From: Oscillatoria acuminata PCC 6304
Lineage (GTDB): Bacteria > Cyanobacteriota > Cyanobacteriia > Cyanobacteriales > Laspinemataceae
Reading direction: 5' to 3'
Assembly: GCF_000317105.1 (NCBI RefSeq)
Contig: NC_019693.1
Location: 3,967,227 to 4,031,226 of the forward strand
DNA: 64,000 nucleotides
Positions 13,239 to 64,000 of the stretch are shown here, piece after piece. A model generated the notes under the pieces. It saw only the letters and a program-made list of their open reading frames with translations. It made no database searches and was not told the origin of the DNA. A program made the translations under genes and the position numbers. How positions within the stretch are numbered: position 1 is the first letter of the stretch; each line of letters opens with the position of its first letter.

Positions 13239-13358
13239 TGTAGCAACACCCGGCGGGGGATCAATCCCCCGCCTAACAACTTAAGTCGGTTAAAACCGAC
13301 TGAAAATCTTATGAATTAAGGTCTTGAGTCGATTTTAACCCCTGCCGGGTGTTGCTTT
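13239..13358. repeat. Nested inverted repeats between convergent genes (possible bidirectional terminator or small structured element)
   Basis: Outer IR 'gtagcaacacccggc' (13239-13253) / 'gccgggtgttgc' (13343-13354). Inner hairpins 'ggcggggga tcaa tcccccgcc' and 'gtcggtt aaa accgac'. Confidence 0.5.
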
Positions 13359-14111
13359 TATTCTTCCTGTGAGTTTTTGCTGGATTGATGACAAAATTGA
13401 AAAGGGTTGAGATTTGATAAAAAAGTGATCACCGGGAACCATCATTAAGGTAAATTCCTGAAGGGTTTCTTGACTCCAACCCTCTAGGCTTTCCTGAGTC
13501 GCTTCGGCATCATCTAATCCTCCAAACGCAGAAATTGGATAATCAAAAGGTGTTTCTGAGGAGTAATCATAAATTTCATTAATTGCCAAATCTGCCCTCA
13601 GAATGGGCAGAAATAATTCCATAAGTTCGGAACTTTGAAGAAGAGTATCTGGCATTCCATTGTACCGACATAATTCGGCGATAAATTCGGGTTCGGGCAG
13701 TTGATGAATGGGGGATGATGAAACACCCAGATGAGGAGCCTCACGACCGGAAACAAACAGATATATTGGTTGAGGATAATCATGGCGACGGAGGTAGCGG
13801 GCCAACTCAAATGCAACTAATGCACCGACACTATGGCCGAATAATGCAAAGGGGCGATCGCAATAGGGAAGTAAATTAGTGCTGAGGGCTTTAATTAACG
13901 ATGAAATATCGGTAAAAGGGGGTTCACTGAGGCGATTTTCTCGTCCAGGAAGTTGCACGGGACAAACTTCGATATCCGGTGCTAGTTGAGCCGTCCAGGG
14001 ACAAAAAATGGAAGCTCCTGCACCGGCGTAGGGAAAGCAAAACAAGCGGAAATTAGCGTGATTATTTGGTTTGGAATAGGGAATCCAAGGATTAGCAAGA
14101 GTTCGGTTCAT
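13335..14111 (-). CDS. Type II thioesterase (editing TE of NRPS/PKS clusters)
   Basis: 'FCFPYAGAGASIFCPW' and 'GHSVGALVAFELARYL' (GxSxG), 258 aa. Last gene of the biosynthetic operon. Confidence 0.8.
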   Translation of the reverse strand: MNRTLANPWIPYSKPNNHANFRLFCFPYAGAGASIFCPWTAQLAPDIEVCPVQLPGRENRLSEPPFTDISSLIKALSTNLLPYCDRPFALFGHSVGALVAFELARYLRRHDYPQPIYLFVSGREAPHLGVSSSPIHQLPEPEFIAELCRYNGMPDTLLQSSELMELFLPILRADLAINEIYDYSSETPFDYPISAFGGLDDAEATQESLEGWSQETLQEFTLMMVPGDHFFIKSQPFSILSSIQQKLTGRIKATPGRG

Positions 14112-14300
14112 TTTTACAAATTCAGCTTACAATCAATAGGTTATAGAGATAAGGCAATGCTTTTTTACATTGATTTGGACGGATAGCGGTTTCCCGTCGA
14201 ATGAGGTAAACAGATGATGATAATTATTAAGAGTGCGTTGGCACTCCCTAAAACTGTACCTCATAACCCTGGGAAACGCTATCAATAAATCTTGAATGGG

Positions 14301-15704
14301 TTAACTTTTAGTTGCGGTTAACTCATTAGGATGCACTGCGGAGGCGGGTAAAAAACCACCTTTTTGCAATTGAGCGACGCTGTTTTTAACTGCCGTAATG
14401 ATAAATTGGACATCATCATCACTATGAGCGGTAGATAATAATCCATTGCCACCGCGAATCATTACCCCTTGATAAAACAGGTGATAAGTGAGTAATTGCA
14501 TCGCCATTGAAGGTCCTGAATTGGTTGTATTTCCGCCGGAAACTGGGCCGAAAAGCGAGCCAAAATTGGCCATCCGAATGGGGACGGCATCCTTGATAAA
14601 GTAGGCATTTAATTCAGACACAAAGTCCGAAGTGCGTTGATTTAAACGGTCCTGAAGGGCTGACCCTTCTGCTTTGAGATGGGTTAAGACTGCTTTTGCT
14701 GCGGCGATCGCCAGGGGATGTTTGCAAAAGGTTCCAGCAAAAAAGGTGGTTTCCACAGACGGATAGGAATCATCGCCATAGTTCCAGGTTCCCCCATCAA
14801 TTCGGTCTAAATACTCGGCTTTTCCGGCAATAATTCCAATTGGCATTCCTCCCCCCACGATTTTACCATAAGTGGCGATATCCGCTTGAACTCCGAACCA
14901 GGCTTGTGCGCCGCCCGGATGAATCCGAAATCCGGTGACCATTTCATCAAAAATCAACGCAATTCCTGCTTCTTGGGTCACCTGCCGAAGTTCTTGTAAA
15001 AAGGCTTTGGGTTGCAATTCAGGACGGCGACTTTGAACGGGTTCGACGAGAACAGCGGCTAATTCGTGAGCGTAATTTTTGATAATTTCTAAGGAGTCAG
15101 GATGGTCATATTCTAAGACTAAAACATCGGCGATAAAGTTAGAAAGAATACCGGGAGAGAAGGGTGCAACATGAGGGGGAGAATCCGGGGAAGCAATGGC
15201 AAGCGTGCCATCAAAATGACCATGATAGGAACCGGAAAACAGGGCAATTTTAGGACGTCCCGTTTGCGATCGCGCTAACCGAATAGCAGTCATCACAGCT
15301 TCGGTGCCAGTATTACTAAAAGCAACTCGTTCAGTTTGGGTCATTTCGGCAATCATTTCCGCCACGATTCCTACCTCTTCAGATTGGGGACCGAGTTGTA
15401 TTCCTTTAGCGAGTTGTTCTTGAATAGCGGATTGGATAAAGGGAGGATTGTGACCGAATAAATTCACCCCAAATCCCATTGTCAAGTCTACATATTCATT
15501 ATCATCTACATCCCAAATCCGGCAACCTTGGGAGCGTTTAGCGACAATGGGATAAAAGATTTCTTTAAACGGCATAGGAAACTGACCCCCGGCCCGAATA
15601 TCGGCTAAAACAGGGCGATAGGTTTGGGCCATTTTTTTAGAAGTATGGGTGCGCTGAATGTAGTTTTGAGCGAAGGTTTTTAGATACTGTTGTTGTTCGT
15701 TCAT
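14301..15704 (-). CDS. Class III (PLP) aminotransferase, glutamate-1-semialdehyde aminomutase-like
   Basis: 467 aa, 'SGSYHGHFDG', 'IFDEMVTGFR' (class-III fold motif). Immediately downstream of the R-domain NRPS. Confidence 0.75.
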   Translation of the reverse strand: MNEQQQYLKTFAQNYIQRTHTSKKMAQTYRPVLADIRAGGQFPMPFKEIFYPIVAKRSQGCRIWDVDDNEYVDLTMGFGVNLFGHNPPFIQSAIQEQLAKGIQLGPQSEEVGIVAEMIAEMTQTERVAFSNTGTEAVMTAIRLARSQTGRPKIALFSGSYHGHFDGTLAIASPDSPPHVAPFSPGILSNFIADVLVLEYDHPDSLEIIKNYAHELAAVLVEPVQSRRPELQPKAFLQELRQVTQEAGIALIFDEMVTGFRIHPGGAQAWFGVQADIATYGKIVGGGMPIGIIAGKAEYLDRIDGGTWNYGDDSYPSVETTFFAGTFCKHPLAIAAAKAVLTHLKAEGSALQDRLNQRTSDFVSELNAYFIKDAVPIRMANFGSLFGPVSGGNTTNSGPSMAMQLLTYHLFYQGVMIRGGNGLLSTAHSDDDVQFIITAVKNSVAQLQKGGFLPASAVHPNELTATKS

Positions 15705-15785
15705 GATGGTTTGGATAGGATAATTTAAGGGGGATAACCAGCGAGAATTATATCCCGCTGGTTGGTTGAAGAATGAGGCGTTCGG

Positions 15786-18700
15786 TTAAACTCGCGCCAG
15801 TTTTTGAGTGGTTGGTAGATAACCGGAATGGACCAAATAGCTGAAGTAAGTGGTTAGCAATTTTTCACTCACGGGAGGACAGGTAATATCCGTTCCTTGC
15901 AGTGCAGTTTGAGTATAACGATCGCCGATTTCCAAGGGAGAGGAAGTGGCAGTGCGATCGCCGCTTCCGCTATCAGAGAACACCGACAGCAGGGGATAGA
16001 GTGCATTATCGGTGGAATTTGCTGCCTGTTGATGCAACTGTTCCCGCCATTGGGGATAAGTTACGGGTTCTAAGGGATAACCTTGCGATCGCACCCAGGA
16101 GACAAATTCCCCCCAAGGTAGGGTTTGGGAATTGACCAGATGGAAGTTTTTTCCCATAGATTGCGGTTGTTGGGAGAGGTGAACAATCGCCCGACTCACA
16201 TAGTCCACGGGCACCATTTCCACTTCTGTATTCCAGTTGGGTGCACTTCCGAGTTGGATACAACCTCCGATAATCCGATGGACAAAATCATTGACATTAC
16301 AAGCGCCGGTTTGACTATGACCCGTAATCCGTCCGGGTCGATAAATATTAATGGGGAACCCGCGATCGCGTGCCGCCATTAACAGTTTTTCTGCCACCCA
16401 CTTACTCTGAATGTAACCTCCCTCTAAATGGTCTATATTCGCCAGCTCATCTTCTTCTGTTGCCGTTGAATCAAACACTCCTACTGTGGAAATAAAATGC
16501 AGAGGTTTGAGATGAACTTGATTGGATAATTTCAACAAGTCTAGGGTGCTTGCTACGTTGGCTGCTTTTACCGCTGAGTAAGGATAGGTGAAATTGACCA
16601 ATGCCCCGTTATGATAAATCACATCAATTTGATGAGCAAGGGCCTGGAATTGTTCCGCAGATAATCCTAAACGCGGTTTAGCTAAATTACCGACTAGGGG
16701 AATAATTCTTTCCCCTAGGGAATTTCGCCATAATCCATAGGTTTCCAGATTGCTTTGAATCCGTTTTTTCGCTTCTGCTGCATTAGAAGCACGAACTAAG
16801 CAATAAATTTCGGTGCTGGTTTTTTGCAGCAGTTCTTCTAGCAAAAATGCCCCTAAAAATCCGGTGGCTCCCGTTAAGAGAATATGAGCCGGATTGGGAT
16901 TGAATTGGAACGTACCCAGGGGAGAAAAACTGCCATTAAGTACGATTTCTGCTTGAAAATCTACGGAACTGATATTGACTACTGGGGACTCTTGTTGAGT
17001 GGCCCGTTCAATTTGTTGAGCTAATCCGGCAACAGTTGGGACGGCAAATAAATCCCGCAAAGGAAGGTCTACGGTAAAGGTATCTCGCACCCGGGAGGAG
17101 AGTTGGGTAATCAGTAAAGAATGTCCCCCTAAATCGAAGAAATTATCCTCAATTCCGACTTTTTCCAAGCCTAAAATTTCACTCCAAATTTGGGCAATTT
17201 TCTCCTCTAAAATTGTGCGGGGGGCAACAAATGTGCCTTGCATATCCGGTCGAGAAGTATCAGGGGCCGGGAGTGCCTTGCGATCGACTTTGCCATTGGG
17301 AGTTAGAGGGAGGTGTTCTAAAATTACAAAGGCGGAAGGAACGGCATATTCGGGGAGTTTTTGTTGCAAGTATTGGCGCAATTCTCCCACCAAGTGACGC
17401 CGCTGTTGTCCCTGGAGGGGATTGTTGGTATAACGGTTCCAGGGTTGGATAGAAAGGGGGTAATTTTCATAGAGAAAATCTCCCCAACACCCCTTAATCA
17501 TGGGGACGTTATTGGGGTGGATAAATAGGGTATCGTAGCTGCCATCAAGACTGGAATTCAGCCAACTGAAGATTGTTACATACCCTAATTCTGTCCCTAA
17601 TTTTGCTAAGTTTTCCGGGTCGATACCGATGCCGGAGATGGCCTGTTTTACGGCTTTTTGTAACCCGTCAACGGTTTGAATGTCCGATGAGGTGGCAAGG
17701 AGTTGAACCGCTTTGACATCGGCTAAAACCCGCGCGTTGGGGATACTCCGGAGGGCGAGAATATTGGGCCGATCGCAGTGGAGGCGATCGCGTAGGGAAT
17801 CCAAGGTTAAATGCTCTTGCTGCCAATCCCACTCGGAATACTCAGGAACTGCCGAAATTTCCGGACCTAAATGCAGGGTGACATCATAACGAAACTTGTT
17901 CAGTTCGTTGTGATAAATCCCCTGTTTGGGTTGAATTTCTACCCGGCTAATTTGGGGAAACTGCTGCTTCAGTGCGCGGAAAAATTCCGGAGAAATTGCC
18001 AGTTCTTCCTCTTCAATTAGGCGCTTTTTGATACGCTGTTGCAGCTTATCAATGGAAAGGGAAGCGGGAGCTTGATAAAGCTCAATCGAGGTATGAAAGG
18101 CTTCTAACAGCGGGTAGCTTCGCAAGTCTCCCAGGAAAATCATCCCACCCGGGGCCACAGCATCCAGAGACCCTTCAATCACCTGCAACAGATAATCAAC
18201 GGTGGGGAAATATTGGATAACCGAGTTAATAATGACCGCATCAAAACTATGAGATTCAATGCCGTCAAAATTATCCGCCATCCGTTCTAATAACTTGACT
18301 TGCGGCAAGTTTTGACCGGGTTGGGCCAACTGCTGCCGGATATGATTGAGGGAAGCGGGGGAGAAGTCACTACCCCAATATTGGCTGCAATGGGGTGCAA
18401 TTTTGAACAGCATTAATCCCGTACCGCATCCGATTTCCAGGACGCGATTGGGCTTTAAATCCAGAATACGACTGACGGTATTGTTCACCCATTCTCGCAT
18501 TTCTAGTTCGGGAATGGGTAGGCCGGTATAACTGCTATTCCAGCCACTAATATTAAAGGTTGAATCCCACTGAGAATCGGTTTCGTTGAAGTTTTCATCA
18601 TCATGGACGACTTGCCATTGGGAAAGGCGTTCCTCAATGAGAGTAGAGACTTGGGACTCAAAATTGAACTGGGGGTTCAGAACGAAATAACTCACCAATT

Positions 18701-21566
18701 GTTGCAAATTCGGGCTATCTTCACGGACCATCGTCACAGTTTCCCAAACGGCGGGATGTTGGGCTAAAGTGGCTTCAATTTCTGAGAGTTCAATTCGATA
18801 TCCCCGCAGTTTAACTTGGCGATCGCTACGTCCAATTACCTCCAATTTGCCATCCGGTAACCATCGCCCTAAATCCCCAGTTTTATAAAGGCGATCGCCT
18901 GGAGAATTGCTAAACGGATGGGGTATAAATTTCTCGTGTGTGAGTTCGGGACGGTTGAGATAGCCTCGTGCCAAACCTTTCCCCCCGATATGCAGTTCCC
19001 CGGGAACACCGATGGGAACAGGTTGCAAGTGAGAATCCAGAACATAGATTTCCGTATGGGGGAGGGGATAGCCGATGGGGACTTCTCGACCATTGCCAGC
19101 TTCTACCTGGGACAAATCGCACTTCGTCGCCGCGATGGTGGTTTCGGTGGGTCCGTAGGCGTTGAGCAGTTGTACCCCCTTACCCACTTGGTGATGCCAA
19201 GTTTTTAGGCGATCGGGCAGTGCTTTTTCGCTACCAATGATCGCCAGTCGCACCGATGGGGGTAAGCTCAGTTTCTCCACCGCCATCCGTGCGGTTAGTT
19301 CATGCCAGTAAGCTGTCGGCAAGTTTAGGACGGTAATTCTCCACTCTTGGCACTGTTGCAAGAATCCGGTGATGGATTGGATCATAGTATCGGTTCGCAG
19401 CACTAGGGTCGCGCCACAAGTGAGACTAGTGTAAATTTCCTCAGCGCTGGTATCGAAACTGATGGAAGCAAATTGCAACGGGCGATCATGACGGGTAATT
19501 CCGTATTCTATTTGAGCTACTTGAGTATAAGTGACTAAACCCCGATGAGGAATAGCGACCCCTTTCGGTTTGCCCGTTGATCCCGAAGTATAAATTACAT
19601 ACGCCAAATGGTCTGGGGTGACTCCGCTGGTAGGATTTTCGGTGCTACATTGGGAAATTGCCTGCCAATCAGCATCTAAAGCAAGGGACTGGGTAACGAA
19701 GGGGGTAAATTTATCCCGGATCTGCTGCTGGGTGAGCAAAATCGGCACTGCGGCATCTTCTAACATCCCCTGCAAGCGATCGCGAGGATAGGCAGGGTCG
19801 AGGGGTAAATAAGCACCGCCTGCTTTGAGAATGCCTAAGAGTCCCACGAGCATTTCTAAGGAGCGATCGCAGCATAACCCGACCAAAATATCCGGTCCAA
19901 CCCCTAACCCTTGTAAGTAATGCGCCAGTTGATTGGCTTTGGCGTTCAGTTCGCGATAAGTGAGATGAGCATCTTGATACTGGACGGCTACCGCATCCGG
20001 GGACTGGTTCACCTGGGTTTCAAATAAGTGATGAACGCACCGATTTTCCAAGGGTTCAGGCTGCGATCGCCACCGTCCGGCATTACTCCAGTCCATCAGA
20101 AGTTGATGCCGTTCCCCCTCGGTTAATAAAGAAATCTCACCAATTCGGCGGATCGGGTCCGCCACCATTGCTTCTAAAACGGTTTTTAAATACCCGAGCA
20201 TTCTCACAATACTCTCCCGTTCAAACAAATCCGTACTATACTCAATGGAAGCCGCCAGTCCGTCGGTATATTCCGTGACGCTCAAACTCAGGTCAAATTG
20301 AGTCGTGCCTCGTTCAACGGCGAGGGATTGTAAGGTGAGTCCGGGTAGTTCCAGGGTGGCGGTCGGTGCATTTTGTAAGACAAACATCACCTGGAAGATC
20401 GGCGATCGGCTCAAATCTCGTTCCGGGTGTAATTCTTCCACTAATTTTTCAAAAGGCAGATCCTGATGGCTGTAAGCCCCCAGAGAGACATCGCGCACCC
20501 GATGCAGCAATTCTTGAACCGTGGGGTTGCCTCCGAGGTCCGTATGCAGGGCCAGGGAATTGACAAAAAAGCCGATTGCCTCTTCAATTTCCGCCCGGTT
20601 ACGGTTGGCGATCGGTGAACCTACCACAATGTTTTCCTGGCCGGAATAACGGTAGAGTAAAGTTTTGAACCCTGCCAACAGGGTCATAAACAAGGTCACC
20701 CCTTCGGCTTTGGAAAGGGCTTTCAGGGCTTCCGTAAGGGATTTGGACAGGCGGGTTGATTCCGTCGCCCCTTGATAGGTTTGCACCGCCACCCGGGGGC
20801 GATCGCTGGGTAAATCCAGGGCTGCCGGTGCATTCTTTAAGTGTTGTTTCCAGTATGACAACTGGGCATCTAACACCTCACCTTGTAAATAACCACGCTG
20901 CCAGACGGCAAAATCAGCGTATTGGATGGGTAATTCCGGCAGTGGAGAAGGTTTACCTTGGGAGAAGGCTTGATACAAGGCGGCTAACTCCCGGATAATT
21001 ATGCCGGTAGACCAGCCATCGGAGACGATATGATGGAGGGTAAATAAAACAATATATTCTGTATCTTCTAGCTGCAATAACGTCGATCGCAGCAATGGCC
21101 CGGTCGTGAGGTTAAAAGGAGTCTGGGCTTCCCGAGTGGCAAGGCGCAACGCTTCCCCTTCCCGTTCCGAAGGGGGAACCTGGCGCAGGTCAATCCGTGG
21201 CAAGGGGACAGGTTGCGCGGGGTTGAGCATTTGCATGGGCTCCCCTGCCACTTCTTTAAACGTAGTGCGAATCACTTCATGCCGTCTGACAATTTCGGTG
21301 AGACTCTGTTCTAAGGCGGGGATATGGAGAACTCCTGTCAGACGGATGGCGTAAGGCAGGTTATAAAACGAACTGTTGGGTTCCAGGCGATCGAGAAACC
21401 ACAACCGCGCTTGAGAGAAGGAAGAGATAAAGGTATCGGTCGATCGCGGTTGACAGGCGATCGTATTAGTTGATGCCGTTCTCGGCTTTTTCTGTTGCAA
21501 TCGTTGCAGCAATAACGCTCGTTTTTCAGGAGAAAGAGAGGCAATGCGTTGAGAAATATCGCTCAT
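15786..21566 (-). CDS. NRPS termination module C-A(N-methyltransferase)-T-R. ORF open to 21662, probable ATG start at 21566.
   Basis: C domain ('HHIVSDGWS'). A domain ('LAYVIYTSGSTGKPKGV', 'NAYGPTETT'). SAM MT insert between A8 and A10 ('VLEIGCGTGLMLF', ~17350-18650). T domain ('FFDLGGHSLL'). C-terminal SDR thioester reductase ('LLTGATGFLG...YIQSKWVAEKLL', ~15789-16890). The first 32 codons of the 21662 ORF are encoded by a repeat element. Confidence 0.85.
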   Translation of the reverse strand: MSDISQRIASLSPEKRALLLQRLQQKKPRTASTNTIACQPRSTDTFISSFSQARLWFLDRLEPNSSFYNLPYAIRLTGVLHIPALEQSLTEIVRRHEVIRTTFKEVAGEPMQMLNPAQPVPLPRIDLRQVPPSEREGEALRLATREAQTPFNLTTGPLLRSTLLQLEDTEYIVLFTLHHIVSDGWSTGIIIRELAALYQAFSQGKPSPLPELPIQYADFAVWQRGYLQGEVLDAQLSYWKQHLKNAPAALDLPSDRPRVAVQTYQGATESTRLSKSLTEALKALSKAEGVTLFMTLLAGFKTLLYRYSGQENIVVGSPIANRNRAEIEEAIGFFVNSLALHTDLGGNPTVQELLHRVRDVSLGAYSHQDLPFEKLVEELHPERDLSRSPIFQVMFVLQNAPTATLELPGLTLQSLAVERGTTQFDLSLSVTEYTDGLAASIEYSTDLFERESIVRMLGYLKTVLEAMVADPIRRIGEISLLTEGERHQLLMDWSNAGRWRSQPEPLENRCVHHLFETQVNQSPDAVAVQYQDAHLTYRELNAKANQLAHYLQGLGVGPDILVGLCCDRSLEMLVGLLGILKAGGAYLPLDPAYPRDRLQGMLEDAAVPILLTQQQIRDKFTPFVTQSLALDADWQAISQCSTENPTSGVTPDHLAYVIYTSGSTGKPKGVAIPHRGLVTYTQVAQIEYGITRHDRPLQFASISFDTSAEEIYTSLTCGATLVLRTDTMIQSITGFLQQCQEWRITVLNLPTAYWHELTARMAVEKLSLPPSVRLAIIGSEKALPDRLKTWHHQVGKGVQLLNAYGPTETTIAATKCDLSQVEAGNGREVPIGYPLPHTEIYVLDSHLQPVPIGVPGELHIGGKGLARGYLNRPELTHEKFIPHPFSNSPGDRLYKTGDLGRWLPDGKLEVIGRSDRQVKLRGYRIELSEIEATLAQHPAVWETVTMVREDSPNLQQLVSYFVLNPQFNFESQVSTLIEERLSQWQVVHDDENFNETDSQWDSTFNISGWNSSYTGLPIPELEMREWVNNTVSRILDLKPNRVLEIGCGTGLMLFKIAPHCSQYWGSDFSPASLNHIRQQLAQPGQNLPQVKLLERMADNFDGIESHSFDAVIINSVIQYFPTVDYLLQVIEGSLDAVAPGGMIFLGDLRSYPLLEAFHTSIELYQAPASLSIDKLQQRIKKRLIEEEELAISPEFFRALKQQFPQISRVEIQPKQGIYHNELNKFRYDVTLHLGPEISAVPEYSEWDWQQEHLTLDSLRDRLHCDRPNILALRSIPNARVLADVKAVQLLATSSDIQTVDGLQKAVKQAISGIGIDPENLAKLGTELGYVTIFSWLNSSLDGSYDTLFIHPNNVPMIKGCWGDFLYENYPLSIQPWNRYTNNPLQGQQRRHLVGELRQYLQQKLPEYAVPSAFVILEHLPLTPNGKVDRKALPAPDTSRPDMQGTFVAPRTILEEKIAQIWSEILGLEKVGIEDNFFDLGGHSLLITQLSSRVRDTFTVDLPLRDLFAVPTVAGLAQQIERATQQESPVVNISSVDFQAEIVLNGSFSPLGTFQFNPNPAHILLTGATGFLGAFLLEELLQKTSTEIYCLVRASNAAEAKKRIQSNLETYGLWRNSLGERIIPLVGNLAKPRLGLSAEQFQALAHQIDVIYHNGALVNFTYPYSAVKAANVASTLDLLKLSNQVHLKPLHFISTVGVFDSTATEEDELANIDHLEGGYIQSKWVAEKLLMAARDRGFPINIYRPGRITGHSQTGACNVNDFVHRIIGGCIQLGSAPNWNTEVEMVPVDYVSRAIVHLSQQPQSMGKNFHLVNSQTLPWGEFVSWVRSQGYPLEPVTYPQWREQLHQQAANSTDNALYPLLSVFSDSGSGDRTATSSPLEIGDRYTQTALQGTDITCPPVSEKLLTTYFSYLVHSGYLPTTQKLARV

Positions 21567-21597
21567 GAGTTTTAGGGGATAAATACTGGTATGTGGA

Positions 21598-21656
21598 ACA
21601 CCCGCAGGCTGAAGCCTGGGGCTATACGGACGAAGCCTGCCTGCGCAGGCTGAAGA
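21598..21656. repeat. REP-like double-hairpin element, reverse orientation ('cccgcaggctgaagcctggggctatacggacgaagcctgcctgcgcaggctg')
   Basis: Reverse-complement homolog of 21766-21818 and 43683-43740, with compensatory stem changes. Confidence 0.6.
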
Positions 21657-21765
21657 GTACAATAGGTTTTTAACAACCGAATTGGGATGATTTATTTTTT
21701 GAAATATCCTAACTAGACTGGGCCATAATACCCAATTCGGCTGTTAACAGTTAGCTTTCTCTATT

Positions 21766-21818
21766 AGCCCGCGCAGGCGGGCTTTGTCTGTGTAGCCCCA
21801 CCCTTTAGGGTGCGGTTT
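21766..21818. repeat. REP-like double-hairpin element ('agcccgc gcag gcgggct' + 'gccccaccc ttta gggtgcgg'), forward orientation
   Basis: About 90% identical to 43685-43737. It forms an inverted pair with 21598-21656 across the NRPS intergenic region. Confidence 0.65.
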
Positions 21819-21819
21819 T

Positions 21820-25269: not shown

Positions 25270-25293
25270 GGCAATGCCTTGCCCTTCTGCGCT

Positions 25294-28383: not shown

Positions 28384-28427
28384 CGGTAAGGGATAAAATG
28401 ACTAATTTAGGCTAAATTTAAGGGAGC

Positions 28428-28566
28428 ATCTCAATTTTGCCTACCAACCGAATTGACCTCTCCCCCCTACCCCCCTCCCCTGCAAGGGGAGGGGGAAATT
28501 TATGTCTTTCTCCCCCTTCCCTCGTAGGGAAGGGGGCTGGGGGGTTAGGTCTCTTTTCAAAATTGA
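28428..28566. repeat. MITE-like element copy ('gacctctcccccctacccccctcccctgcaaggggaggggg...cccccttccctcgtagggaagggggctggggggttaggtctcttttcaaaattgagatc')
   Basis: Same family as 150-330, 51000-51150 and 63225-63430. Its right end supplies the last codons and stop of the decarboxylase gene. Confidence 0.65.
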
Positions 28567-30188: not shown

Positions 30189-30241
30189 GATAGTGACTCA
30201 ATCCAAATACTTTTACAAAGGGTTAGGGTTGTGATGAGGGA

Positions 30242-33559: not shown

Positions 33560-33590
33560 TGCACCCTCTCCTAAATGTTACCTGATACCC

Positions 33591-48663: not shown

Positions 48664-48722
48664 TCTCCGATTCTAGTAAATGCACCCCTAAGCGGGGTAA
48701 ACGTAGCGTATAAAGTTCTGTA

Positions 48723-49775: not shown

Positions 49776-49782
49776 AGGAGGG

Positions 49783-53475: not shown

Positions 53476-53937
53476 CCTTAACTCCTACTGAGTTTTTGAC
53501 CCCTAAACGGCGTAATTGCCCTCTCCTTTTTCTGGAGGTCAGTCCTTCTGCTTATTGAGAATCTTTTATAATAAGCAATGATTTGCATCCTATAGCTTCT
53601 GAATAGCCTTGTCAATAGGGCAAGGGAAATTTTTTAGGGTTTTCTGTGTTGATTGCTACAGGGTAGGCCGCAAATCTCCGAAAATTGGGCCTAAAAGCGA
53701 GGGTTGATGGGGAGTTTAGAGAAATTTCAGGACCGTGGACTCCTAATTTTTCAGTCAAAAGATTGGCATTTAGTCTACCTTTAATGAGAATATCTTTAAA
53801 TAAGTAGAAAGAATCTATCCCAACTTATTGATAAGATTCTCAATTACTTGAGACTAAGGGGGACCTATGATGACAAGCTGAGGGAGAAATCCACCGCCTC
53901 GATTCATCCCTCCTCGATTCTGTTACTCTAGATCACC
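53476..53937. promoter_or_regulatory. Divergent intergenic promoter region between the biosynthetic operon (-) and the MFS/uptake genes (+), with inverted-repeat candidate operator sites
   Basis: 462 bp AT-rich non-coding region. It contains 'cttattgagaatcttttataataagcaatgatttgc' (53550-53585) and 'cttattgataagattctcaattac' (53829-53852), which hold inverted copies of 'ttgagaatctt'/'aagattctcaa' and GATAAT-like hexamers. Confidence 0.4.
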
Positions 53938-55212: not shown

Positions 55213-55431
55213 TTGAAAGTTTTCCGCATTATTTGCTAAGAATTGTCAAGAAAAGTTGCTATTTTGATAAACAGCACCAGCCCCAGTCAACCCTGAATTC
55301 TCCAAAGTCCAGGGTTGAGAACCTTGATAAATCAAGCAGAACTTCCGCTCAATCCGGACTTGAGGAGGGGTTTGGCAGAAATTTTCCGCCCCCATTTCCT
55401 CCGGTTACCAAAAAATTTTAGCAATTACCTA

Positions 55432-55460
55432 TTGACAGTCATAGACCACTTAGGGTAAAT
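55432..55460 (+). promoter_or_regulatory. Candidate sigma70-type promoter for the TonB-receptor/ABC operon
   Basis: 'ttgaca' (55432-55437), 17-nt spacer, 'gtaaat' (55455-55460), ~85 nt upstream of the TTG start. Confidence 0.3.
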
Positions 55461-55545
55461 TGACTTGGCTAATGCAAATTACTATCAATAACTGAGATGA
55501 ATTGCAAAAACTTCTATTGTATAGATTGGGACTGAGGAAAGGAAA

Positions 55546-58185: not shown

Positions 58186-58186
58186 G

Positions 58187-59191
58187 TTGCAGATGAGGGA
58201 AGCAGTCGCCAGGGTACTCTATTCCGGGTTATTAATCACCGTTTTAATGGCCTGTCGGGGGACTTTTGTCCCTCACTATTCCGTGGGAAATCGATCCGGG
58301 GTTAACCCAGCCTTACCCACACAGCGGGTTCAAACGTTTACCGATGTCACCGAAACTGTGGTACAGGTGAGGGAATCTCCTGAGCGCATAGTTTGCTTAC
58401 ATTTAATGTGTATTGACATCTTGGCGGAACTCGATCTCGAACCCGTGGGGATGAATGGGGGTTTAGTAGAGATGGCCATGAATTCAGTGTACTTTGGCGA
58501 TCGCGCTCGTAGTTTCGGCCAAATTGGTGGTCACGGGGAACCGAATTTAGAACAGTTACTCATCCTAGAACCGGATGTAACCATCGGACATCAGATCCAG
58601 CTTTCCCATCAACGTCAAACCCTCGAAACGATTACCCCCCTGTATCTGATGAAGGTGGAAACCTACACCGAGGCAGTCTCCAATCTCCAGGCAGTGGGTA
58701 AAATGTTGGGGTCCGAAGAAAAGGCCGAAGCAGCAGCTTGGCACTTTTTAGATAAATTCAGGGCTTATCGGGCCAAATCCCCGCGAACTCACAGCGTGAT
58801 GGTAATGCAAGGGAGCCCGAGTAGATATTTTGTTGCTACAAACCAATCCCTCGTGGGTTCCACCCTGGCCGAACTCACACCCTATCCCTGGCGTCTGGGG
58901 TATAACTCGGCGAGCGCTATTAATTGGACAACTTATTCCTTTGAGGAAATCCTCTCCGTCGATCCGGATTTCATTTTCATCATCAACAGTTCCCGCGCCC
59001 CGGATTTGATTTCGGGGTTAAAAACCCATCGTCTGTGGCAAACGCTCACCGCAGTAAAACGGAGTCAGGTCTTTGCCCTGGAGGAAGACCAAATTGGCGG
59101 GTTGTCGAGTGGCACTCGGTCCCTGGGCCAGTTACTGGATGACATTATGACCACCATGTATCCTGACGTTTTTCCGGAACCCTTACCATGA
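58187..59191 (+). CDS. Periplasmic Fe3+-siderophore binding lipoprotein (FecB/FhuD family)
   Basis: Lipobox 'VLMAC'. 334 aa. ATGA overlap with the downstream permease gene. Confidence 0.75.
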   Translation: MQMREAVARVLYSGLLITVLMACRGTFVPHYSVGNRSGVNPALPTQRVQTFTDVTETVVQVRESPERIVCLHLMCIDILAELDLEPVGMNGGLVEMAMNSVYFGDRARSFGQIGGHGEPNLEQLLILEPDVTIGHQIQLSHQRQTLETITPLYLMKVETYTEAVSNLQAVGKMLGSEEKAEAAAWHFLDKFRAYRAKSPRTHSVMVMQGSPSRYFVATNQSLVGSTLAELTPYPWRLGYNSASAINWTTYSFEEILSVDPDFIFIINSSRAPDLISGLKTHRLWQTLTAVKRSQVFALEEDQIGGLSSGTRSLGQLLDDIMTTMYPDVFPEPLP

Positions 59192-60216
59192 GTGCGACTC
59201 ACCCGGACCCCCTGATCCTGAGAGCTTCCCGATTTTGGGTGGCACTGATCTCACTGACGGCAATGCTTCTGGCCCTTGGCCTCCTGTCTCTGCAATTGGG
59301 AAAACCGACCCTCAACTTATCCCAGTTGTGGGAGATTGCCATTTCTGGACAAGGGGAACCGATTCAGCGCTTGGTGTTTTGGGAAATCCGCTTGCCCCGC
59401 CTGATTCTCGGCACCCTCACTGGCGCAATCTTAGCCCTGGCCGGAGTCCTCCTCCAGAATGCCTTGCGGAATGTTCTGGCAGGGCCGGAATTGTTGGGAG
59501 TTCAGTCGGGGGCAGCAGCAGTGATGGCGGCGATCATTGTCTTACAACTACCTGTGCCTATTTCGGTCTATCCCTTACTGGCGTTGGTCGGGGGTATGGT
59601 GGGAGGGGCGATCGTCTTAATCTCCTCCAAACGCACATCAGACCCGGTCCGGCTAGTCTTGATTGGTGCTGCCATGACCGCCCTATTGAACTCCATAACG
59701 ATCGCCTTAATTAGTCTAGGGACTGCCAACAATGTCAGTCTGCTTTTTTTATACTTATTGGGTTCTCTCGCCGGTCGCACTTGGGACGAAGTGCAGATCG
59801 TGGTATCTTGGGCCATTGTGGGCATTCCCCTCGCCCTGCTGTGCGCCCGTCCCCTGAATATCTTGCAACTGGGGGATGAACTGGCTGAAGGACTGGGGTT
59901 AAAAGTGTTACCCACCCGCTTTGCCATTGGGGTATTGAGTGTCGTCCTGGTCGCCCCGGCGATGGCTACCTGTGGCCCGATCGCCTATATCGCCTTACTC
60001 GCCCCCCACCTCGCCCGCAATCTCTTAGGCACCACCGATGCAAAGCAAGTTCTGGTCCTGGCGATTCCCATCGGTGCGCTCTTGCTCGTGGGTGCAGATT
60101 TGGTGGCAAGGGAAGCGTTTGCACCGATGGAAATACCTGTGGGAGTCTGGACCACCCTCCTCGGTGGACCGGCTTTATTAGTGCTGCTGCAAAAACAAAT
60201 TCGGAGTCGAGGATAA
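59188..60216 (+). CDS. Fe3+-siderophore ABC permease (FecCD family)
   Basis: 342 aa polytopic protein. 'GAALAGVLLQ...LLGVQSGAA' FecCD signature region. Confidence 0.8.
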   Translation: MSATHPDPLILRASRFWVALISLTAMLLALGLLSLQLGKPTLNLSQLWEIAISGQGEPIQRLVFWEIRLPRLILGTLTGAILALAGVLLQNALRNVLAGPELLGVQSGAAAVMAAIIVLQLPVPISVYPLLALVGGMVGGAIVLISSKRTSDPVRLVLIGAAMTALLNSITIALISLGTANNVSLLFLYLLGSLAGRTWDEVQIVVSWAIVGIPLALLCARPLNILQLGDELAEGLGLKVLPTRFAIGVLSVVLVAPAMATCGPIAYIALLAPHLARNLLGTTDAKQVLVLAIPIGALLLVGADLVAREAFAPMEIPVGVWTTLLGGPALLVLLQKQIRSRG

Positions 60217-61283
60217 TGACGGTCTTACCCGGAAGGAGAATTCAGACCCCGCAAGCGGGTCAACTCACATTTGCTCAGAGCATGACTGCGGTCATCCTCG
60301 TTCTGGGGGTCGTCTTTGTCTTGCACGTTTGTGTTGGCAGTGGTACCCTTTCCCCCGAGGAAGCCGTCGCCGCTTTGGTGAATCACCCGCTCCAAGCGGT
60401 ACATGGCCGGATTGTCTGGGAATTGCGCGTCCCCAGGGCAGCAGTTGCTACCCTGGCCGGGTCTTTATTTGGACTCTCCGGGGCCATGCTCCAGGCAATT
60501 ATCCGCAACCCTTTAGCAGAACCCAGTCTCACGGGGGTGACCTCTGGGGCGGTATTGTTTTTAATCCTCTCCCTGACGTTCTTACCTTTTGGGGAAATTC
60601 CTCCCATCTGGTTCCCGGCGATCGCATTGGTGGGAGGATGTCTGACCAGCAGTATGGTGTACTTCCTGAGTCGGCAACCCAATCGCCCGAGTGACCCTTT
60701 ACAACTGGTCTTAAATGGGGCCGTTGTAGCGGCGATCGTTCAATCCATTAACTCTTTACTATTATTAAGAGATCAAGAATCCCTCGGCATCATTTTATTC
60801 TGGCTGGTTGGCTCCTTGCACGGGCGCACCTGGGTGCATTGGCAGGGGATTTGGGCAGTCGCCCTGATTGCCTTACCCTGTGGACTCGCCTGCGCCCGAG
60901 TTGCCAATCTGCTCCATCTCGGCGATGATGTTGCCGCCGGATTGGGAGTCCCCGTGGGTCAAGCGAGAGCCACTTTATTTTTTATTGCGGTTTGGTTAAG
61001 TGCCACGGCGGTTTCTGTCGTTGGTGCCGTCGGATTCATTGGCTTAATCGGCCCCCATTTAGCCCGTCAATGGGTCGGAAACGATGCCCGTCGCTTGTTT
61101 CCCCTGAGTACCGCCATTACTGCCCTGTTACTGTTAGGATCTGATTTATTCGCCCAAGTGCTCACCCTCACCTTTGGCAATAATAGAGCCACCCTCCCGG
61201 TTGGGGCTGTTACCGCCCTGTTAGGTGCACCCTTCTTTTTATATCTAGTTTTAAGAAAAAACCCGATGGGTTCCAGATCATAA
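60216..61283 (+). CDS. Fe3+-siderophore ABC permease (FecCD family), second subunit
   Basis: 355 aa, paralog of 59188..60216 ('LAGSLFGLSGAMLQAIIRNPLAEPSLTGV'). Confidence 0.8.
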   Translation: MTVLPGRRIQTPQAGQLTFAQSMTAVILVLGVVFVLHVCVGSGTLSPEEAVAALVNHPLQAVHGRIVWELRVPRAAVATLAGSLFGLSGAMLQAIIRNPLAEPSLTGVTSGAVLFLILSLTFLPFGEIPPIWFPAIALVGGCLTSSMVYFLSRQPNRPSDPLQLVLNGAVVAAIVQSINSLLLLRDQESLGIILFWLVGSLHGRTWVHWQGIWAVALIALPCGLACARVANLLHLGDDVAAGLGVPVGQARATLFFIAVWLSATAVSVVGAVGFIGLIGPHLARQWVGNDARRLFPLSTAITALLLLGSDLFAQVLTLTFGNNRATLPVGAVTALLGAPFFLYLVLRKNPMGSRS

Positions 61284-61285
61284 TT

Positions 61286-62116
61286 ATGTCAGTAAACTCC
61301 CCGATTCTCGCCGCTGAAGATTTACAAGTTGGTTACAGTCACCAGACTATCCTCAAGAACCTGTCCATCGAGATTGAACGGGGGAGAGTTACGGCATTAG
61401 TCGGACCCAATGGGTCGGGCAAATCTACCCTTTTAAAAACTTTAGCTCGATTGTTGTCCCCGAGTAGCGGACAAGTTTATTTGAATGGGGTGGCACTCAC
61501 GCGCCTTGCCACCCGAGATATCGCCCGTCAAATGGCTATTCTGCCTCAAAATCCAGTCGCCCCTCCGGGATTAACGGTCGCTGAATTAGTGGAACAGGGC
61601 CGGTTTCCTCATGTGGGACCTTTAGGGATGTTACGTCGCCAGGACCGGGAGGCGATCGCCGAGGCCCTGACTCTTACCGCCATGACCGAATTTGCCCATC
61701 GCCGTCTGGATAATCTCTCCGGAGGAGAACGACAACGGGCCTGGATTTCTCTAGCTTTAGCTCAAGAAACGCCTTTATTATTATTAGATGAACCGACGAG
61801 CTTTTTAGATATTGGACATCAGCTAGAAGTGTTAGAAATTGTCCGTCACCTGAATCGCGATCGGGGGATGACAATTATTTTAGTCCTCCATGACTTAAAT
61901 CAAGCCGCCCGTTACAGCGATCGCATGGTGGTTCTCAAACGGGGACGAATTATAGCCGATGGAACTCCCCGTCGCGTCTTAACCCCGGACCTTTTAGCCG
62001 AAGCCTTCGGAGTCCGCGCCCGAGTCACCCTGGAACCGGAAACCGGAATTCCCTTATGTTTTCCCTATGCCTATATTGGCAATGCTCCCCTGCCTGTAGA
62101 TGCTCCTCAATCTTAG
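61286..62116 (+). CDS. Fe3+-siderophore ABC transporter ATPase (FecE/FhuC family)
   Basis: Walker A 'GPNGSGKST', ABC signature 'LSGGERQR', Walker B 'LLLLDEPTSFLD', H-loop 'LHDL'. Confidence 0.9.
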   Translation: MSVNSPILAAEDLQVGYSHQTILKNLSIEIERGRVTALVGPNGSGKSTLLKTLARLLSPSSGQVYLNGVALTRLATRDIARQMAILPQNPVAPPGLTVAELVEQGRFPHVGPLGMLRRQDREAIAEALTLTAMTEFAHRRLDNLSGGERQRAWISLALAQETPLLLLDEPTSFLDIGHQLEVLEIVRHLNRDRGMTIILVLHDLNQAARYSDRMVVLKRGRIIADGTPRRVLTPDLLAEAFGVRARVTLEPETGIPLCFPYAYIGNAPLPVDAPQS

Positions 62117-62122
62117 CTGACT

Positions 62123-63100
62123 ATGAGCCATATTTCTTGTTCAGAATTAACTCGCCAATCTGGTAATTCCCTCAGTGGCACTGCATTAACCTACGAAAAT
62201 TATCTCTTAGTTGAATGTCCTCCTCCTTGGAACTCTTATGATTTAGAAACGCCAAGAATTCCCGATAATCTTCGGGCAGTCGGGAATGAAATTTATGGGA
62301 ATAAGCCCGTTAAAAATAGAATTCTGCTCATTTATAATCCCCTGTATCACCAGGAAAATACTCTCCGTGTCTTAACCTTTCGGAAACCCGGAGGGTCTGT
62401 TCTAGGATATGTGGGTCAAGAATTCTTTGTTTCTGATATCAATGAAGTTGCCTCCCTTGCTCACCACTGCTTTACCAGTCCCCGGGAAAAATTAGAAAAA
62501 AATCATCTCAAAACCCGAGATATTTTAATCTGTACCCACGGCCAAAATGACCGATGTTGTGCCAGATATGGCAATCCATTATATCGCCAAGCCTTAAAGA
62601 TAATTGAGGATTTATCATTAACCAATCTAAGAATTTGGCAAACCAGCCATATCGGGGGCCATCGCTTTGCACCGATTGCAGTCGCCTTTCCCGATGGCCG
62701 ATATTATGGTCAAATTGACTCCAGTGCTTTACAACCTTTACTGATGCAGTCCGGTTCGCTTCATGACTTATCCCGTGCCTATCGCGGTTGGGGAATTTTA
62801 CCCAAACCCGTGCAACTGTTAGAAAAAACACTGTTACAAGAATGGGGATGGCAGGGATTAAACTATAAAATGACAGGGCGAATTGTCACTGAAAATCCGG
62901 AGGCTTTTTATTACCGAGTTGAATTGGAAGTGAAAAGGGAAGGAAAGGTGATAATTTATCAAGCTGATGTAATTGGGGATAAACAAACCCGGATAGAGTT
63001 ACCGGAATCTTGTGTGGGAAATTGGCAAGAAACCGTCATGAATTATCAGGTCCAAGGAATAGAAGTGATAGCCCAGCAGGAATCACTTTCTCTCCCCTAA
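62123..63100 (+). CDS. Sucrase/ferredoxin-like (thioredoxin-fold, CxxH...DxCCxR motif) protein
   Basis: 'ILICTHGQNDRCCARYG' matches the Suc_Fer-like family cysteine motif. 325 aa. Co-directional and 7 nt downstream of the ABC ATPase. Confidence 0.55.
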   Translation: MSHISCSELTRQSGNSLSGTALTYENYLLVECPPPWNSYDLETPRIPDNLRAVGNEIYGNKPVKNRILLIYNPLYHQENTLRVLTFRKPGGSVLGYVGQEFFVSDINEVASLAHHCFTSPREKLEKNHLKTRDILICTHGQNDRCCARYGNPLYRQALKIIEDLSLTNLRIWQTSHIGGHRFAPIAVAFPDGRYYGQIDSSALQPLLMQSGSLHDLSRAYRGWGILPKPVQLLEKTLLQEWGWQGLNYKMTGRIVTENPEAFYYRVELEVKREGKVIIYQADVIGDKQTRIELPESCVGNWQETVMNYQVQGIEVIAQQESLSLP

Positions 63101-63224
63101 AAAAATGATTCAGAGAAAGCAGCATTAGCCGGTTACCGAAGTTAAATTTTCGCTTCAGTTTTAAAATATTGTTATTTCTAATGGATGGTCTAACTTTCAA
63201 TTACATCAAACAGAAATTCAGAGA

Positions 63225-63430
63225 GCATCTCAATTTGAAAAAGAGACCTAACCCCCCAGCCCCCTTCCCTACAAGGGAAGGGGGAGAAAGACATAAATTC
63301 CCCCCTCCAGCAATAAAAAAATTTCCTTATTCTCCCTCTCCTCTTAGGAGAGGGCCGGGGAGAGGTGGGAAGGGGGGAGGGGGGTTAGGTCAGACTGGTT
63401 TTTAAGAAAAATTGAAATGCTCCCAAAAAT
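63225..63430. repeat. Complete MITE-like element with terminal inverted repeats
   Basis: Left 'catctcaatttgaaaaagagacctaaccccccagcccccttccctacaagggaaggggg', right 'ggggggaggggggttaggtcagactggtttttaagaaaaattgaaatgctccc'. Internal 'agcaataaaaaaatttccttattctccctct' shared with the copy at 150-330. Confidence 0.7.
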
Positions 63431-64000
63431 CCGCCTGTTTTTATTATTTTTATTCAGCCTAATTTTTGCAATGATTATCAGACCTGCTACTCCAGAAACT
63501 CATATAAAATCCCCAGAAATTCTTTGGGATACTTATGGAATTCCTCATATTTACGCGGCGAATCACCCCGAATTATTTTATGCCTTTGGTTGGGCGCAAA
63601 TGCAGAGTCATGGCAACTTACTGTTAAGATTATATGGTCAAGCCCGAGGACGGGGGGCAGAATATTGGGGAGAAACCTATTTAGAGGGCGATCGCTGGAT
63701 ACATACAATGGGAGTTCCCCGGCGCGCCCAAGACTGGTATAGGGCCCAAACCCCAGAATTTCGCACCTATCTCGATGCTTTTGCGGCTGGAATTAATGCC
63801 TACGCCGAACAACAGGGCGATCGCCTCGATGAAGCAGTCAAAGTCGTACTACCTGTCTCCGGAGTGGATATTTTAGCCCATCTTCAGCAAGTCCTCAATT
63901 TTACCTTTGTCGTCAATCCCGAAAAAATTAAGGAACTGCTACCAACCCCAGAAGAGACCCCGGGTTCCAATGCCTGGGCGATCGCACCAGCGCGATCGCA
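63417..64000 (+). CDS. Penicillin-amidase family Ntn-hydrolase (PvdQ / AHL-acylase-like), 3'-truncated by the window end
   Basis: Signal peptide 'MLPKIRLFLLFLFSLIFAMII'. Alpha-subunit motifs 'GIPHIYAANHPELFYAFGWAQMQSHGNLLL'. 'GSNAWAIAP' at ~aa 185 matches the autoproteolytic Ser-Asn N-terminus of the beta subunit. This frame is open to the end of the window and is not in the supplied ORF list. Confidence 0.7.
   Translation, partial: MLPKIRLFLLFLFSLIFAMIIRPATPETHIKSPEILWDTYGIPHIYAANHPELFYAFGWAQMQSHGNLLLRLYGQARGRGAEYWGETYLEGDRWIHTMGVPRRAQDWYRAQTPEFRTYLDAFAAGINAYAEQQGDRLDEAVKVVLPVSGVDILAHLQQVLNFTFVVNPEKIKELLPTPEETPGSNAWAIAPARS

Follow-up and report, generated by a model that had tools for sequence, protein, structure and literature searches.

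A probable cyanochelin-like siderophore island in Oscillatoria acuminata PCC 6304 that includes genes for export, uptake, and maturation

A 64,000-nt stretch of the Oscillatoria acuminata PCC 6304 genome (NC_019693.1, positions 3,967,227 to 4,031,226), hereafter the window, was found to carry a gene island of about 50 kb. The island is very probably a cyanochelin-like siderophore cluster, i.e., a nonribosomal peptide synthetase (NRPS)/polyketide synthase (PKS) line primed by a fatty acyl-AMP ligase (FAAL) and of the β-hydroxy-aspartate (β-OH-Asp) type, with export, uptake, and maturation genes of its own. Domain content, motifs, specificity codes, homology to the cyanochelin B cluster, the transport cassette, synteny, and Fur-like sites together lead to this reading. 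The cyanochelin-like family comprises cyanobacterial FAAL-primed NRPS or NRPS/PKS clusters making β-OH-Asp peptides, and three of its products have been characterized. In "numerous cyanochelin-like BGCs" (biosynthetic gene clusters), FAAL and NRPS are directly fused (bioRxiv 10.64898/2026.07.24.740629), and the antiSMASH metallophore rule now holds two cyanobacterial Asp β-hydroxylase clades. Among the papers available for searching, none was found that links PCC 6304 to cyanochelin or TauD.

By open reading frame (ORF) list and Pfam search, the island is intact. Eleven minus-strand genes (g1 to g11, Table 1) form a collinear FAAL/NRPS/PKS operon of 40,141 nt (13335-53475), and the export, uptake, and maturation genes lie opposite on the plus strand. 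The two halves diverge from a 462-bp intergenic region (53476-53937) between g1 and the gene of a major facilitator superfamily (MFS) exporter. An initial annotation of this DNA had described a siderophore-type NRPS/PKS island facing its own export and uptake genes across a shared intergenic region. That layout was reproduced together with the gene coordinates and domain order; the ORF list was identical and Pfam confirmed each named domain. The gaps between the minus-strand genes, which had been given as 8-80 nt, range from 7 to 189 nt, the largest being 173, 157, and 189 nt. One condensing domain was counted per carrier (T) domain along the whole line. These counts agree with strict collinearity. 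The carrier serines, the Cys and His residues of the ketosynthase (KS), the malonyl motif HAFH, the DxxxxD of the heterocyclization (Cy) domain, the N-methyltransferase (N-MT) motifs, and the GxxGxxG and YxxxK motifs of the reductase (R) domain are all intact.

Several features of the cyanochelin-like family were found in the island. FAAL and a carrier domain begin the line, TauD-family hydroxylases are present in both a stand-alone and a fused form, and an interface domain stands before the Asp-specific adenylation (A) domain. The line ends in a thioester reductase, i.e., reductive release, and a cassette of the cct type is adjacent. The host is a cyanobacterium, with 88 HIP1 sites in the window. 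The two N-terminal domains of g3 and g4, which resemble condensation (C) domains, do lack HHxxxDG as first annotated. The domain of g3 reads LPAVCAD, that of g4 reads IPALCGD and precedes the Asp code DLTKVGHVGK, and both resemble the interface-domain motif of cyanochelin B. The C domain of g1 carries HHIISDG.

These features bear on two claims of the initial annotation, which had dismissed the cyanochelins as "phenolate-starting" and suggested that the siderophore type may be undescribed. The family is defined by FAAL, β-OH-Asp-forming hydroxylases, and an NRPS(/PKS) line, and the dismissal was mistaken. Given this shared logic, the cassette match, the similarity of g3 to CcsFGH, and a catalog entry of 2014, the claim of an undescribed type is unsupported. 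The product itself appears to be so far uncharacterized.

The cyanochelin B cluster is carried by plasmid 2 of Leptolyngbya sp. NIES-3755 (AP017310.1), whereas the PCC 6304 cluster is chromosomal and native. Protein identities between the two were mostly 30-53%, with 27% for the binding protein. The g3 product aligned end-to-end with CcsFGH (BAU16013) over approximately 2,900 residues at 47% identity, and its C-terminal TauD domain was 44% identical to the fused CcsFGH hydroxylase domain. Identities were 49% for the FAAL part of g1 (to BAU16016), 51% for g2 (to CcsK, BAU16062), 48% for the first module of g4 (to CcsI, BAU16012), 53% for the Cy-A region of g8, and 49% between the T-R region of g9 and the T-TD region of cyanochelin B. 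Both clusters have one stand-alone and one fused TauD, interface domains without HHxxxDG, Gly modules, a Cy module, a terminal thioester reductase, and a divergent cassette of AMIN-TonB receptor, binding protein, MFS exporter, thioredoxin-like ferredoxin, and two FecCD permeases. They differ in several points. The FAAL of cyanochelin B delivers to PKS modules, its acyl group is C-C linked, the thiazoline is N-terminal, and epimerase domains are present, unlike here. The cyanochelin B cluster has no acylase, PanP, N-MT, or aminotransferase, all of which are present in PCC 6304, and it has an extra DevBCA-like exporter but no ATPase gene.

Cyanochelin B has a transport cassette that is known to consist of CctA, an AMIN-TonB receptor, CctB, a binding protein, CctC, an MFS exporter, CctD, a Suc_Fer ferredoxin, and the FecCD permeases CctE and CctF. 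All six were matched pairwise in the window, and the arrangement agrees gene for gene with the published cassette. The ABC importer proteins were 27-41% identical to CctB, CctE, and CctF, the lowest value being that of the binding protein. The best NCBIfam match of the receptor was RhtA with 240 bits, far under the curated cutoff of 1100. The Suc_Fer family is known from cyanobacterial siderophore cassettes. After a gap of 316 nt follows the gene of an N-terminal nucleophile (Ntn) hydrolase, i.e., a putative PvdQ/CcsQ-like acylase, which is cut by the window end. Its N-terminus is hydrophobic and resembles a signal peptide, MLPKIRLFLLFLFSLIFAMI, and its orthologue in the locus L010 of a metagenome-assembled genome (MAG) is full length with 750 aa. 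In a published survey of siderophore BGCs, 22 of 31 cyanochelin-like clusters have an Ntn-hydrolase acylase, and in a published phylogeny the cyanobacterial acylases group nearer to GL-7-ACA acylases than to PvdQ (bioRxiv 10.64898/2026.07.24.740629).

The specificity codes of all seven A domains, as the initial annotation had recommended, were extracted against GrsA, whose residue numbering was self-consistent. The extraction was calibrated on cyanochelin B, where it gave Phe, Gly, Cys, Asp, Asp, and Gly, in agreement with the solved structure. In PCC 6304, Gly, Asp, Ser, β-Ala, Thr, and Arg-like codes were read, and the first A domain of g3 (g3-A1) was non-Asp. A pairwise extraction had made the g8 pocket look odd and unassignable; this was discarded, because the code based on a multiple sequence alignment equals a published Thr code. 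The g8 code groups with the Thr/Ser codes of VibF, BasA, PmsG, and FbsF, which we take to come from oxazoline-forming domains of Cy modules. The g6 product scored above the equivalog cutoff of PanP, so it would supply β-Ala and not a terminal amine. The g7 protein has no ketoreductase (KR) and by its domains would add a C2 unit with the keto group retained.

From these codes and domains, the precursor is predicted as acyl-X*(OH)-Gly-(β-OH-Asp)-Ser-β-Ala-CH2C(=O)-[5-methyloxazoline]-NMe-(Arg-like)-CH2NH2. The product logic annotated at first stood, with its acyl start, β-hydroxylation of one or more residues, azoline ring, N-methylated residue, and R domain paired with an aminotransferase. Of the thiazoline/oxazoline alternative left in it, the azoline was retained and the thiazoline was dropped, since the Thr code makes a methyloxazoline the most likely heterocycle. 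The iron ligands are likely to be two α-hydroxy-carboxylate units and a keto/enol-oxazoline pair, in which the keto/enol group beside the oxazoline nitrogen could act as the third bidentate ligand. The word "amphiphilic" is doubtful, since an adjacent acylase suggests removal of the chain as in cyanochelin C and pyoverdine. The acyl group would be amide-linked and the island encodes an acylase with a hydrophobic N-terminus, and thus the mature compound is probably deacylated, by analogy with cyanochelin C.

The proposed pathway can be outlined as follows. Assembly would begin at the FAAL, which loads a fatty acid for the starter C domain to couple to residue 1 through an amide bond. The non-canonical A domain would load residue 1, and the stand-alone TauD, docked via the first interface domain, would hydroxylate it. 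Gly would come second, followed by Asp, which would be hydroxylated by the g3-fused TauD docked via the second interface domain. Then Ser and PanP-derived β-Ala would be added, and one malonyl extension would be kept as a ketone. Thr would be cyclized to methyloxazoline, and an N-methylated Arg-like residue would terminate the chain. The R domain would free an aldehyde, and the HemL-like aminotransferase would convert it to an amine. The acylated precursor would be exported by the MFS pump, and the Ntn hydrolase would probably strip the acyl chain in the periplasm. The ferric complex would re-enter by the AMIN-TonB receptor, the binding protein, and the FecCD/ATPase importer, and the Suc_Fer-like protein may aid iron release.

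The last biosynthetic step involves g10. In the myxochelin B route, the MxcG reductase and the MxcL aminotransferase reportedly turn an aldehyde into a primary amine. The same combination, i.e., a terminal R domain with an adjacent HemL-like class-III aminotransferase gene, was found here and predicts the same conversion. The myxochelin B scaffold, a catecholate-lysine, is entirely different, and the role of the aminotransferase in the island is read from gene adjacency only. The g10 protein fell under every curated NCBIfam cutoff including that of HemL, and its matches include the aldehyde transaminases GntE and PigE. In three other cyanobacterial clusters (L011, L012, L013), terminal TauD and A-T-R modules are followed, directly or at a distance of one gene, by homologues of g10 with 66-68% identity, which adjoin an acylase. 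This supports, but does not prove, reductive release followed by transamination, and g10 probably turns the aldehyde released by the R domain into an amine. A diaminobutyrate aminotransferase/decarboxylase pair of the RhbA/RhbB type was considered for g10 and g6 and rejected; g6 exceeds the PanP cutoff and its RhbB score was no higher than 162 of 900 bits, and g10 resembles HemL.

The gene order TauD, C-like-A-T-R, HemL-like aminotransferase, and acylase was seen at 5398-11467 in L011 and L012 and at 4551-11431 in L013. The A codes of their C-like-A-T-R proteins read DSASIAEVWK or DSACIAEVWK, presumably His-like codes. By sequence, this suggests a reduced and aminated β-OH-His terminus in these clusters.

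Among the closest known architectures is that of cyanochelin C (ccs, Myxacorys chilensis/californica; bioRxiv 10.64898/2026.07.24.740629), which was compared by its published description. It shares the direct FAAL-NRPS fusion, an Ntn-hydrolase acylase (CcsQ in that cluster) and a full transporter cassette beside the BGC, a β-Ala module, an Asp module encoded in the gene after a protein that ends in "C-TauD", a Cy module with Thr that gives a methyloxazoline, and reductive release. The order is inverted in comparison, with the hydroxylated residues placed first in PCC 6304 and the oxazoline late. The β-Ala source is PanP here, whereas a transaminase was proposed for cyanochelin C. The PCC 6304 line has an additional KR-less PKS, N-MT, post-R aminotransferase, and type II thioesterase, and it has no epimerase module.

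More distant systems share single traits. Pyoverdine, with its PvdL acyl start and periplasmic deacylation by PvdQ, and related delipidated siderophores likewise pair a fatty-acid-primed peptide with an Ntn hydrolase, but no chromophore chemistry was found here. Marinobactins, aquachelins, cupriachelin, and potashchelins share the fatty acid beside a hydroxylated acidic N-terminal residue, TauD-type hydroxylases with interface domains, and photoreactive α-hydroxy-carboxylate ligands. In the proteobacterial acylated β-OH-Asp peptides, the starter C domain is fed from acyl-CoA or acyl carrier protein (ACP) and is not known to use a FAAL, and hydroxamates are usually added. To our knowledge, these systems have no PKS, oxazoline, N-methyl, or amine tail and no AMIN-domain receptor.

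The A domain g3-A1 is the unusual part of the line. It has no Asp235 and carries atypical A4 (AFSSSVRQ) and A5 (NMFGQTE) motifs, although its catalytic motifs are intact. An Asp-type interface domain stands in front of it, and the stand-alone hydroxylase g2 lies alongside. The pocket is kept in the orthologue of L010 and in a 58%-identical cluster, L006. So far as can be read from the fragmented gene calls of L006, its genes follow the same order, namely FAAL, C, TauD, interface, non-canonical A, Gly-type A, fused TauD, and interface-A(Asp). The clade, with the pocket S-S-R-D-V/L-A-M, is widespread in cyanobacteria and Acidobacteria (Pyrinomonadaceae), and its members are often stand-alone A-T or MbtH-A-T proteins. 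In L007, a member begins a PKS line inside a polysaccharide-type locus. Neither published code tables nor the contexts of homologues gave a substrate assignment. A kinship with the Gly domain of LgrA, suggested by a PDB search with 640 bits, was rejected; two ordinary A-domain matches of approximately 307 and 335 bits had been added together in that score, and LgrA-A2 has a normal FDxS motif. As a lead only, Arg239 is presumably comparable to the codes of A domains that activate a side-chain carboxyl (Aad, iso-linked Glu, MeAsp).

A further idea is put forward tentatively, and it is held to be doubtful. The product could be a structurally new cyanochelin sub-class with an "inverted" layout, in which residue 1 is made by this uncharacterized A clade (Ser235, Ser236, Arg239, Asp278) and the stand-alone TauD. 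Under this tentative layout, the hydroxy-acid chelators would sit right behind the removable acyl chain, and a keto/enol-methyloxazoline, made by the KR-less PKS and the Cy domain, would be the third ligand.

The regulation of the island was addressed by searching for a 15-bp Fur-type palindrome of the E. coli-type consensus with up to three mismatches. The search found 11 sites against 3.35 expected, a number not attained in any of 100 shuffles. Of these sites, five fall in intergenic DNA of the island or a short way upstream of its genes. The best matches, 14215 and 14218, are between g10 and g11, those at 55234 and 55473 are upstream of the receptor gene, and that at 63466 is upstream of the acylase. 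With the 19-bp E. coli Fur consensus, the best match still had four mismatches. Promoter-like sites were seen on the g1 side, directly followed by a conserved AT-rich block, and on the receptor side, directly followed by the Fur-like site 55473, which falls within a block fully conserved in L010. Both promoter regions were aligned with the orthologous MAG locus, which was 86% identical overall, and their AT-rich blocks are fully or nearly conserved; the Fur-box-like blocks of the divergent region include GCAAATCATTGCTTATTATAAAAGATTCTCAATAAG and TAATTGAGAATCTTATCAA. These findings are suggestive of iron control, and expression of the island is probably repressed by Fur under plentiful iron.

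Five observations weigh against a cyanochelin-like siderophore island or its function in this strain. The heterocycle lies near the C-terminus, the Cy module being the eighth of nine chain-building steps and following the PKS module, whereas the five-membered heterocycle of the characterized cyanochelins A, B, and C is near the N-terminus. The code of g3-A1 is not Asp-specific; the line has a pair each of hydroxylases and interface domains, yet an Asp code was read in only one interface-domain module (g4-A1), and a second β-OH-Asp, a hallmark of the family, is therefore no more than putative. No MbtH-like gene was found in the 64-kb window. The Fur-like matches are weak, i.e., two or three mismatches to the E. 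coli-type consensus. Finally, a 69-aa insertion in g1 could impair the first condensation in PCC 6304, while close orthologues are without it.

The insertion is 207 nt long, in frame, and without stop codon, and lies inside the starter C domain of g1. A dispersed hairpin repeat, present in two to three copies, makes up the insertion and adds the residues MGGDFNFEKRPNPPAPFPAREGGER... between motifs C2 and C3, a stretch of variable length among C domains. Other C domains lack the insertion, as do the 90-95% identical orthologues, which measure 1159-1161 aa. The flanks CGGTGA and CGGTAA are possibly a target-site duplication. The repeat family resembles miniature inverted-repeat transposable elements (MITE), with the core GACCTAACCCCCCnnCCCCCTTCCCTnnnAGGGAAGGGGGAG, and is otherwise intergenic only, e.g., as three tandem 150-nt units at 10121-10570 and in the g6/g7 and Suc_Fer/acylase gaps. 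In the orthologous MAG locus, the Suc_Fer/acylase gap measures just 80 nt.

The first alternative to be considered is that this insertion blocks acylation or chain initiation, and that little or no product is made in PCC 6304. Its absence from all 90-95% identical orthologues, its position within the C domain between C2 and C3, and the otherwise intergenic habit of the repeat fit such a crippled cluster. However, the insertion is exactly in frame at a length-variable site, and the AlphaFold2 (AF2) model places it as an unstructured loop (pLDDT, the per-residue confidence score, below 50) projecting from flanking core strands and helices that are confident. The remaining genes are all open with intact catalytic motifs. 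A crippled cluster is considered unlikely, and it would concern the output of PCC 6304 only, without competing on the kind of cluster.

A metallophore for a mainly non-iron metal, e.g., Cu or Zn, with the TonB/ABC system importing that complex, is less likely still. Heterocycle-plus-amine ligands can bind Cu or Zn, and, as lusichelins, leptochelins, and fatuamide illustrate, not every cyanobacterial PKS/NRPS metallophore is specific for iron. However, the TauD/interface pairs and the Asp module would give α-hydroxy-carboxylate ligands, which are typical of Fe(III), the FecCD/Peripla_BP_2 importer is of the ferric-siderophore type, the receptor is nearest to the RhtA/CctA types, and Fur-like boxes are present. 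Lastly, a bioactive lipopeptide without metal role that merely adjoins an iron-uptake operon is very improbable; FAAL-primed compounds such as puwainaphycins are common in cyanobacteria, but both halves share one promoter region in an arrangement kept in a related genome, the hydroxylase/interface pairs are siderophore-specific, and acylase, receptor, and FAAL co-occur as in the published siderophore BGC survey.

The cyanochelin-like island is also conserved in relatives. Synteny over the entire island, from the acylase to a 2106-aa synthetase, was seen in MAG JBBQFN010000002.1, and the g4-g9 part, the portion that could be read, is syntenic in Oscillatoria sp. HE19RPO and a second MAG with 87-94% DNA identity. 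At position 4 of the chain, the second A domain of g4 differs. It has the Ser code DVWHFSLVDK in PCC 6304 and a Gly-type code, DILQLGMIWK or DILQFGMIWK, in the two relatives readable there, i.e., HE19RPO (L001) and MAG JBBQFN (L002). The segment of this module is 44% identical to these relatives, versus approximately 90% elsewhere, and the Ser/Gly difference is read from the sequences as a module swap. As a separate observation, four of nine residues differ in the g8 A-domain pocket, DMFNFGVLW here versus DLFNIGIIW in the 95%-identical orthologues of the same two relatives, which may be a specificity shift.

The cluster is supported as native to the genome by HIP1 sites throughout and a low dinucleotide difference, as the initial annotation had concluded. 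HIP1 (GCGATCGC) would be expected approximately once from length alone by our own estimate. HIP1 was said to occur in every large gene; this holds for all island genes over 1 kb except one FecCD permease gene (59188-60216). Table S1 in Calteau et al. 2014 has an entry for a chromosomal cluster of PCC 6304 with 40,140 nt, classed as "HYBRID" without cluster family and tagged "Siderophore +"; its dinucleotide difference is given as 15.55 and its share of GC-deviant genes as 0%, and a mobility trace is absent. As the operon described here measures 40,141 nt, the locus is already cataloged as a putative siderophore cluster since 2014. The left flank (1-13212) is filled by unrelated housekeeping genes, and 13335 is therefore the true cluster border. 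Within this flank, two paralogous Mg2+ transporters of the MgtE type, with 511 and 466 aa, were seen in tandem at 5122-8173, adjoining a gene for a Na+/H+ exchanger-Usp fusion.

Table 1. Genes, adenylation-domain codes, and other sequence features of the window (positions within the 64,000-nt stretch)
Feature	Position	Strand	Evidence or remark
g1, FAAL-ACP-C loading protein, 1230 aa	49783-53475	-	Pfam AMP-binding, AMP-dom_DIP2-like, PP-binding, Condensation
g2, stand-alone TauD-family β-hydroxylase	48723-49775	-	Pfam TauD 7e-52
g3, interface-A*(non-canonical)-T-C-A(Gly)-T-C-TauD, 2913 aa	39922-48663	-	Pfam
g4, interface-A(Asp)-T-C-A(Ser)-T	33591-39932	-	Pfam
g5, C-A(β-Ala)-T	30242-33559	-	Pfam; PanP gene adjoins
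g6, pyridoxal phosphate (PLP)-dependent aspartate 1-decarboxylase PanP	28557-30188	-	NCBIfam TIGR03799 equivalog, 632 bits (cutoff 606)
g7, KS-AT(malonyl)-ACP without KR (AT, acyltransferase)	25294-28383	-	Pfam; TACSTS Cys, GHSIG, HAFH
g8, Cy-A(Thr)-T heterocyclization module	21820-25269	-	DGIFFDARS replaces HHxxxDG
g9, C-A(N-MT inserted)-T-R terminal module	15786-21662	-	Pfam Condensation, AMP-binding, Methyltransf_12, PP-binding, NAD_binding_4 (1.5e-72); VLEIGCGTG, NELNKFRYD, GATGFLG, YIQSK
g10, HemL-like class-III aminotransferase	14301-15704	-	Pfam Aminotran_3
g11, type II thioesterase (editing)	13335-14111	-	Pfam Thioesterase 6e-46
MFS exporter (CctC/EntS-like)	53938-55212	+	Pfam MFS_1, MFS_3; 43% identity to CctC
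TonB-dependent receptor, N-terminal AMIN (CctA-like)	55546-58185	+	Pfam AMIN, Plug, barrel; 40-43% identity to CctA
ABC importer: periplasmic binding protein, two FecCD permeases, ATPase	58187-62116	+	Pfam Peripla_BP_2, FecCD (two), ABC_tran
Suc_Fer-like (thioredoxin-like ferredoxin), CctD-like	62123-63100	+	Pfam Suc_Fer-like; 30% identity to CctD, E 3e-41
Ntn-hydrolase acylase (PvdQ/CcsQ-like), N-terminal 194 aa only	63417-64000	+	Pfam Penicil_amidase 7e-30; window end cuts gene
g3-A1 domain	45784-47256		Code SSRDVAMGIK; without Asp235; not Asp by code
g3-A2 code			DILQLGLIWK; Gly
g4-A1 code			DLTKVGHVGK; Asp
g4-A2 code			DVWHFSLVDK; Ser; exact match to common Ser code seen 45 times
g5 code			VDWVVSLADK; β-Ala type; Asp moved to position 236 as in β-amino-acid codes
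g8 code			DMFNFGVLWK; Thr; 10/10 match to leupyrrin LeuA (Thr)
g9 code			DTENIGAIAK; Arg-like; 7/10 match to published Arg-cluster consensus; low confidence
g4 second-module segment	33591-36900		Ser/Gly difference
In-frame insertion in g1 starter C domain	50953-51159	-	207 nt (69 aa)
MITE-like repeat copies	144-223, 578-653, 699-774, 10091-10570, 28422-28575, 63223-63308
Island Fur-like sites	14215-14232, 55234-55248, 55473-55487, 63466-63480		First is two overlapping sites (14215/14218)
g1-side promoter-like site	53615-53587		TTGACA-17-TAGGAT
Receptor-side promoter-like site	55432-55461		TTGACA-18-TAAATT

The current picture of cyanobacterial iron acquisition is unchanged by these points. Genome searches in cyanobacteria have detected approximately 200 NRP-metallophore regions, against three characterized cyanochelins. 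PCC 6304, whose genome is finished and whose island is complete with clear borders, is a practical target for a fourth cyanochelin structure. The useful specifics are a predicted sequence that can be searched by liquid chromatography-mass spectrometry (LC-MS), a likely maturation from an acylated to a deacylated form, an unassigned A clade tied to a β-hydroxylase, a natural Ser/Gly module swap, and a natural in-frame C-domain insertion. If the clade activates a substrate other than α-linked Asp, e.g., an acidic amino acid via its side-chain carboxyl, this would be a new siderophore building block, and if true, such a building block would be common to cyanobacterial and acidobacterial NRPSs.

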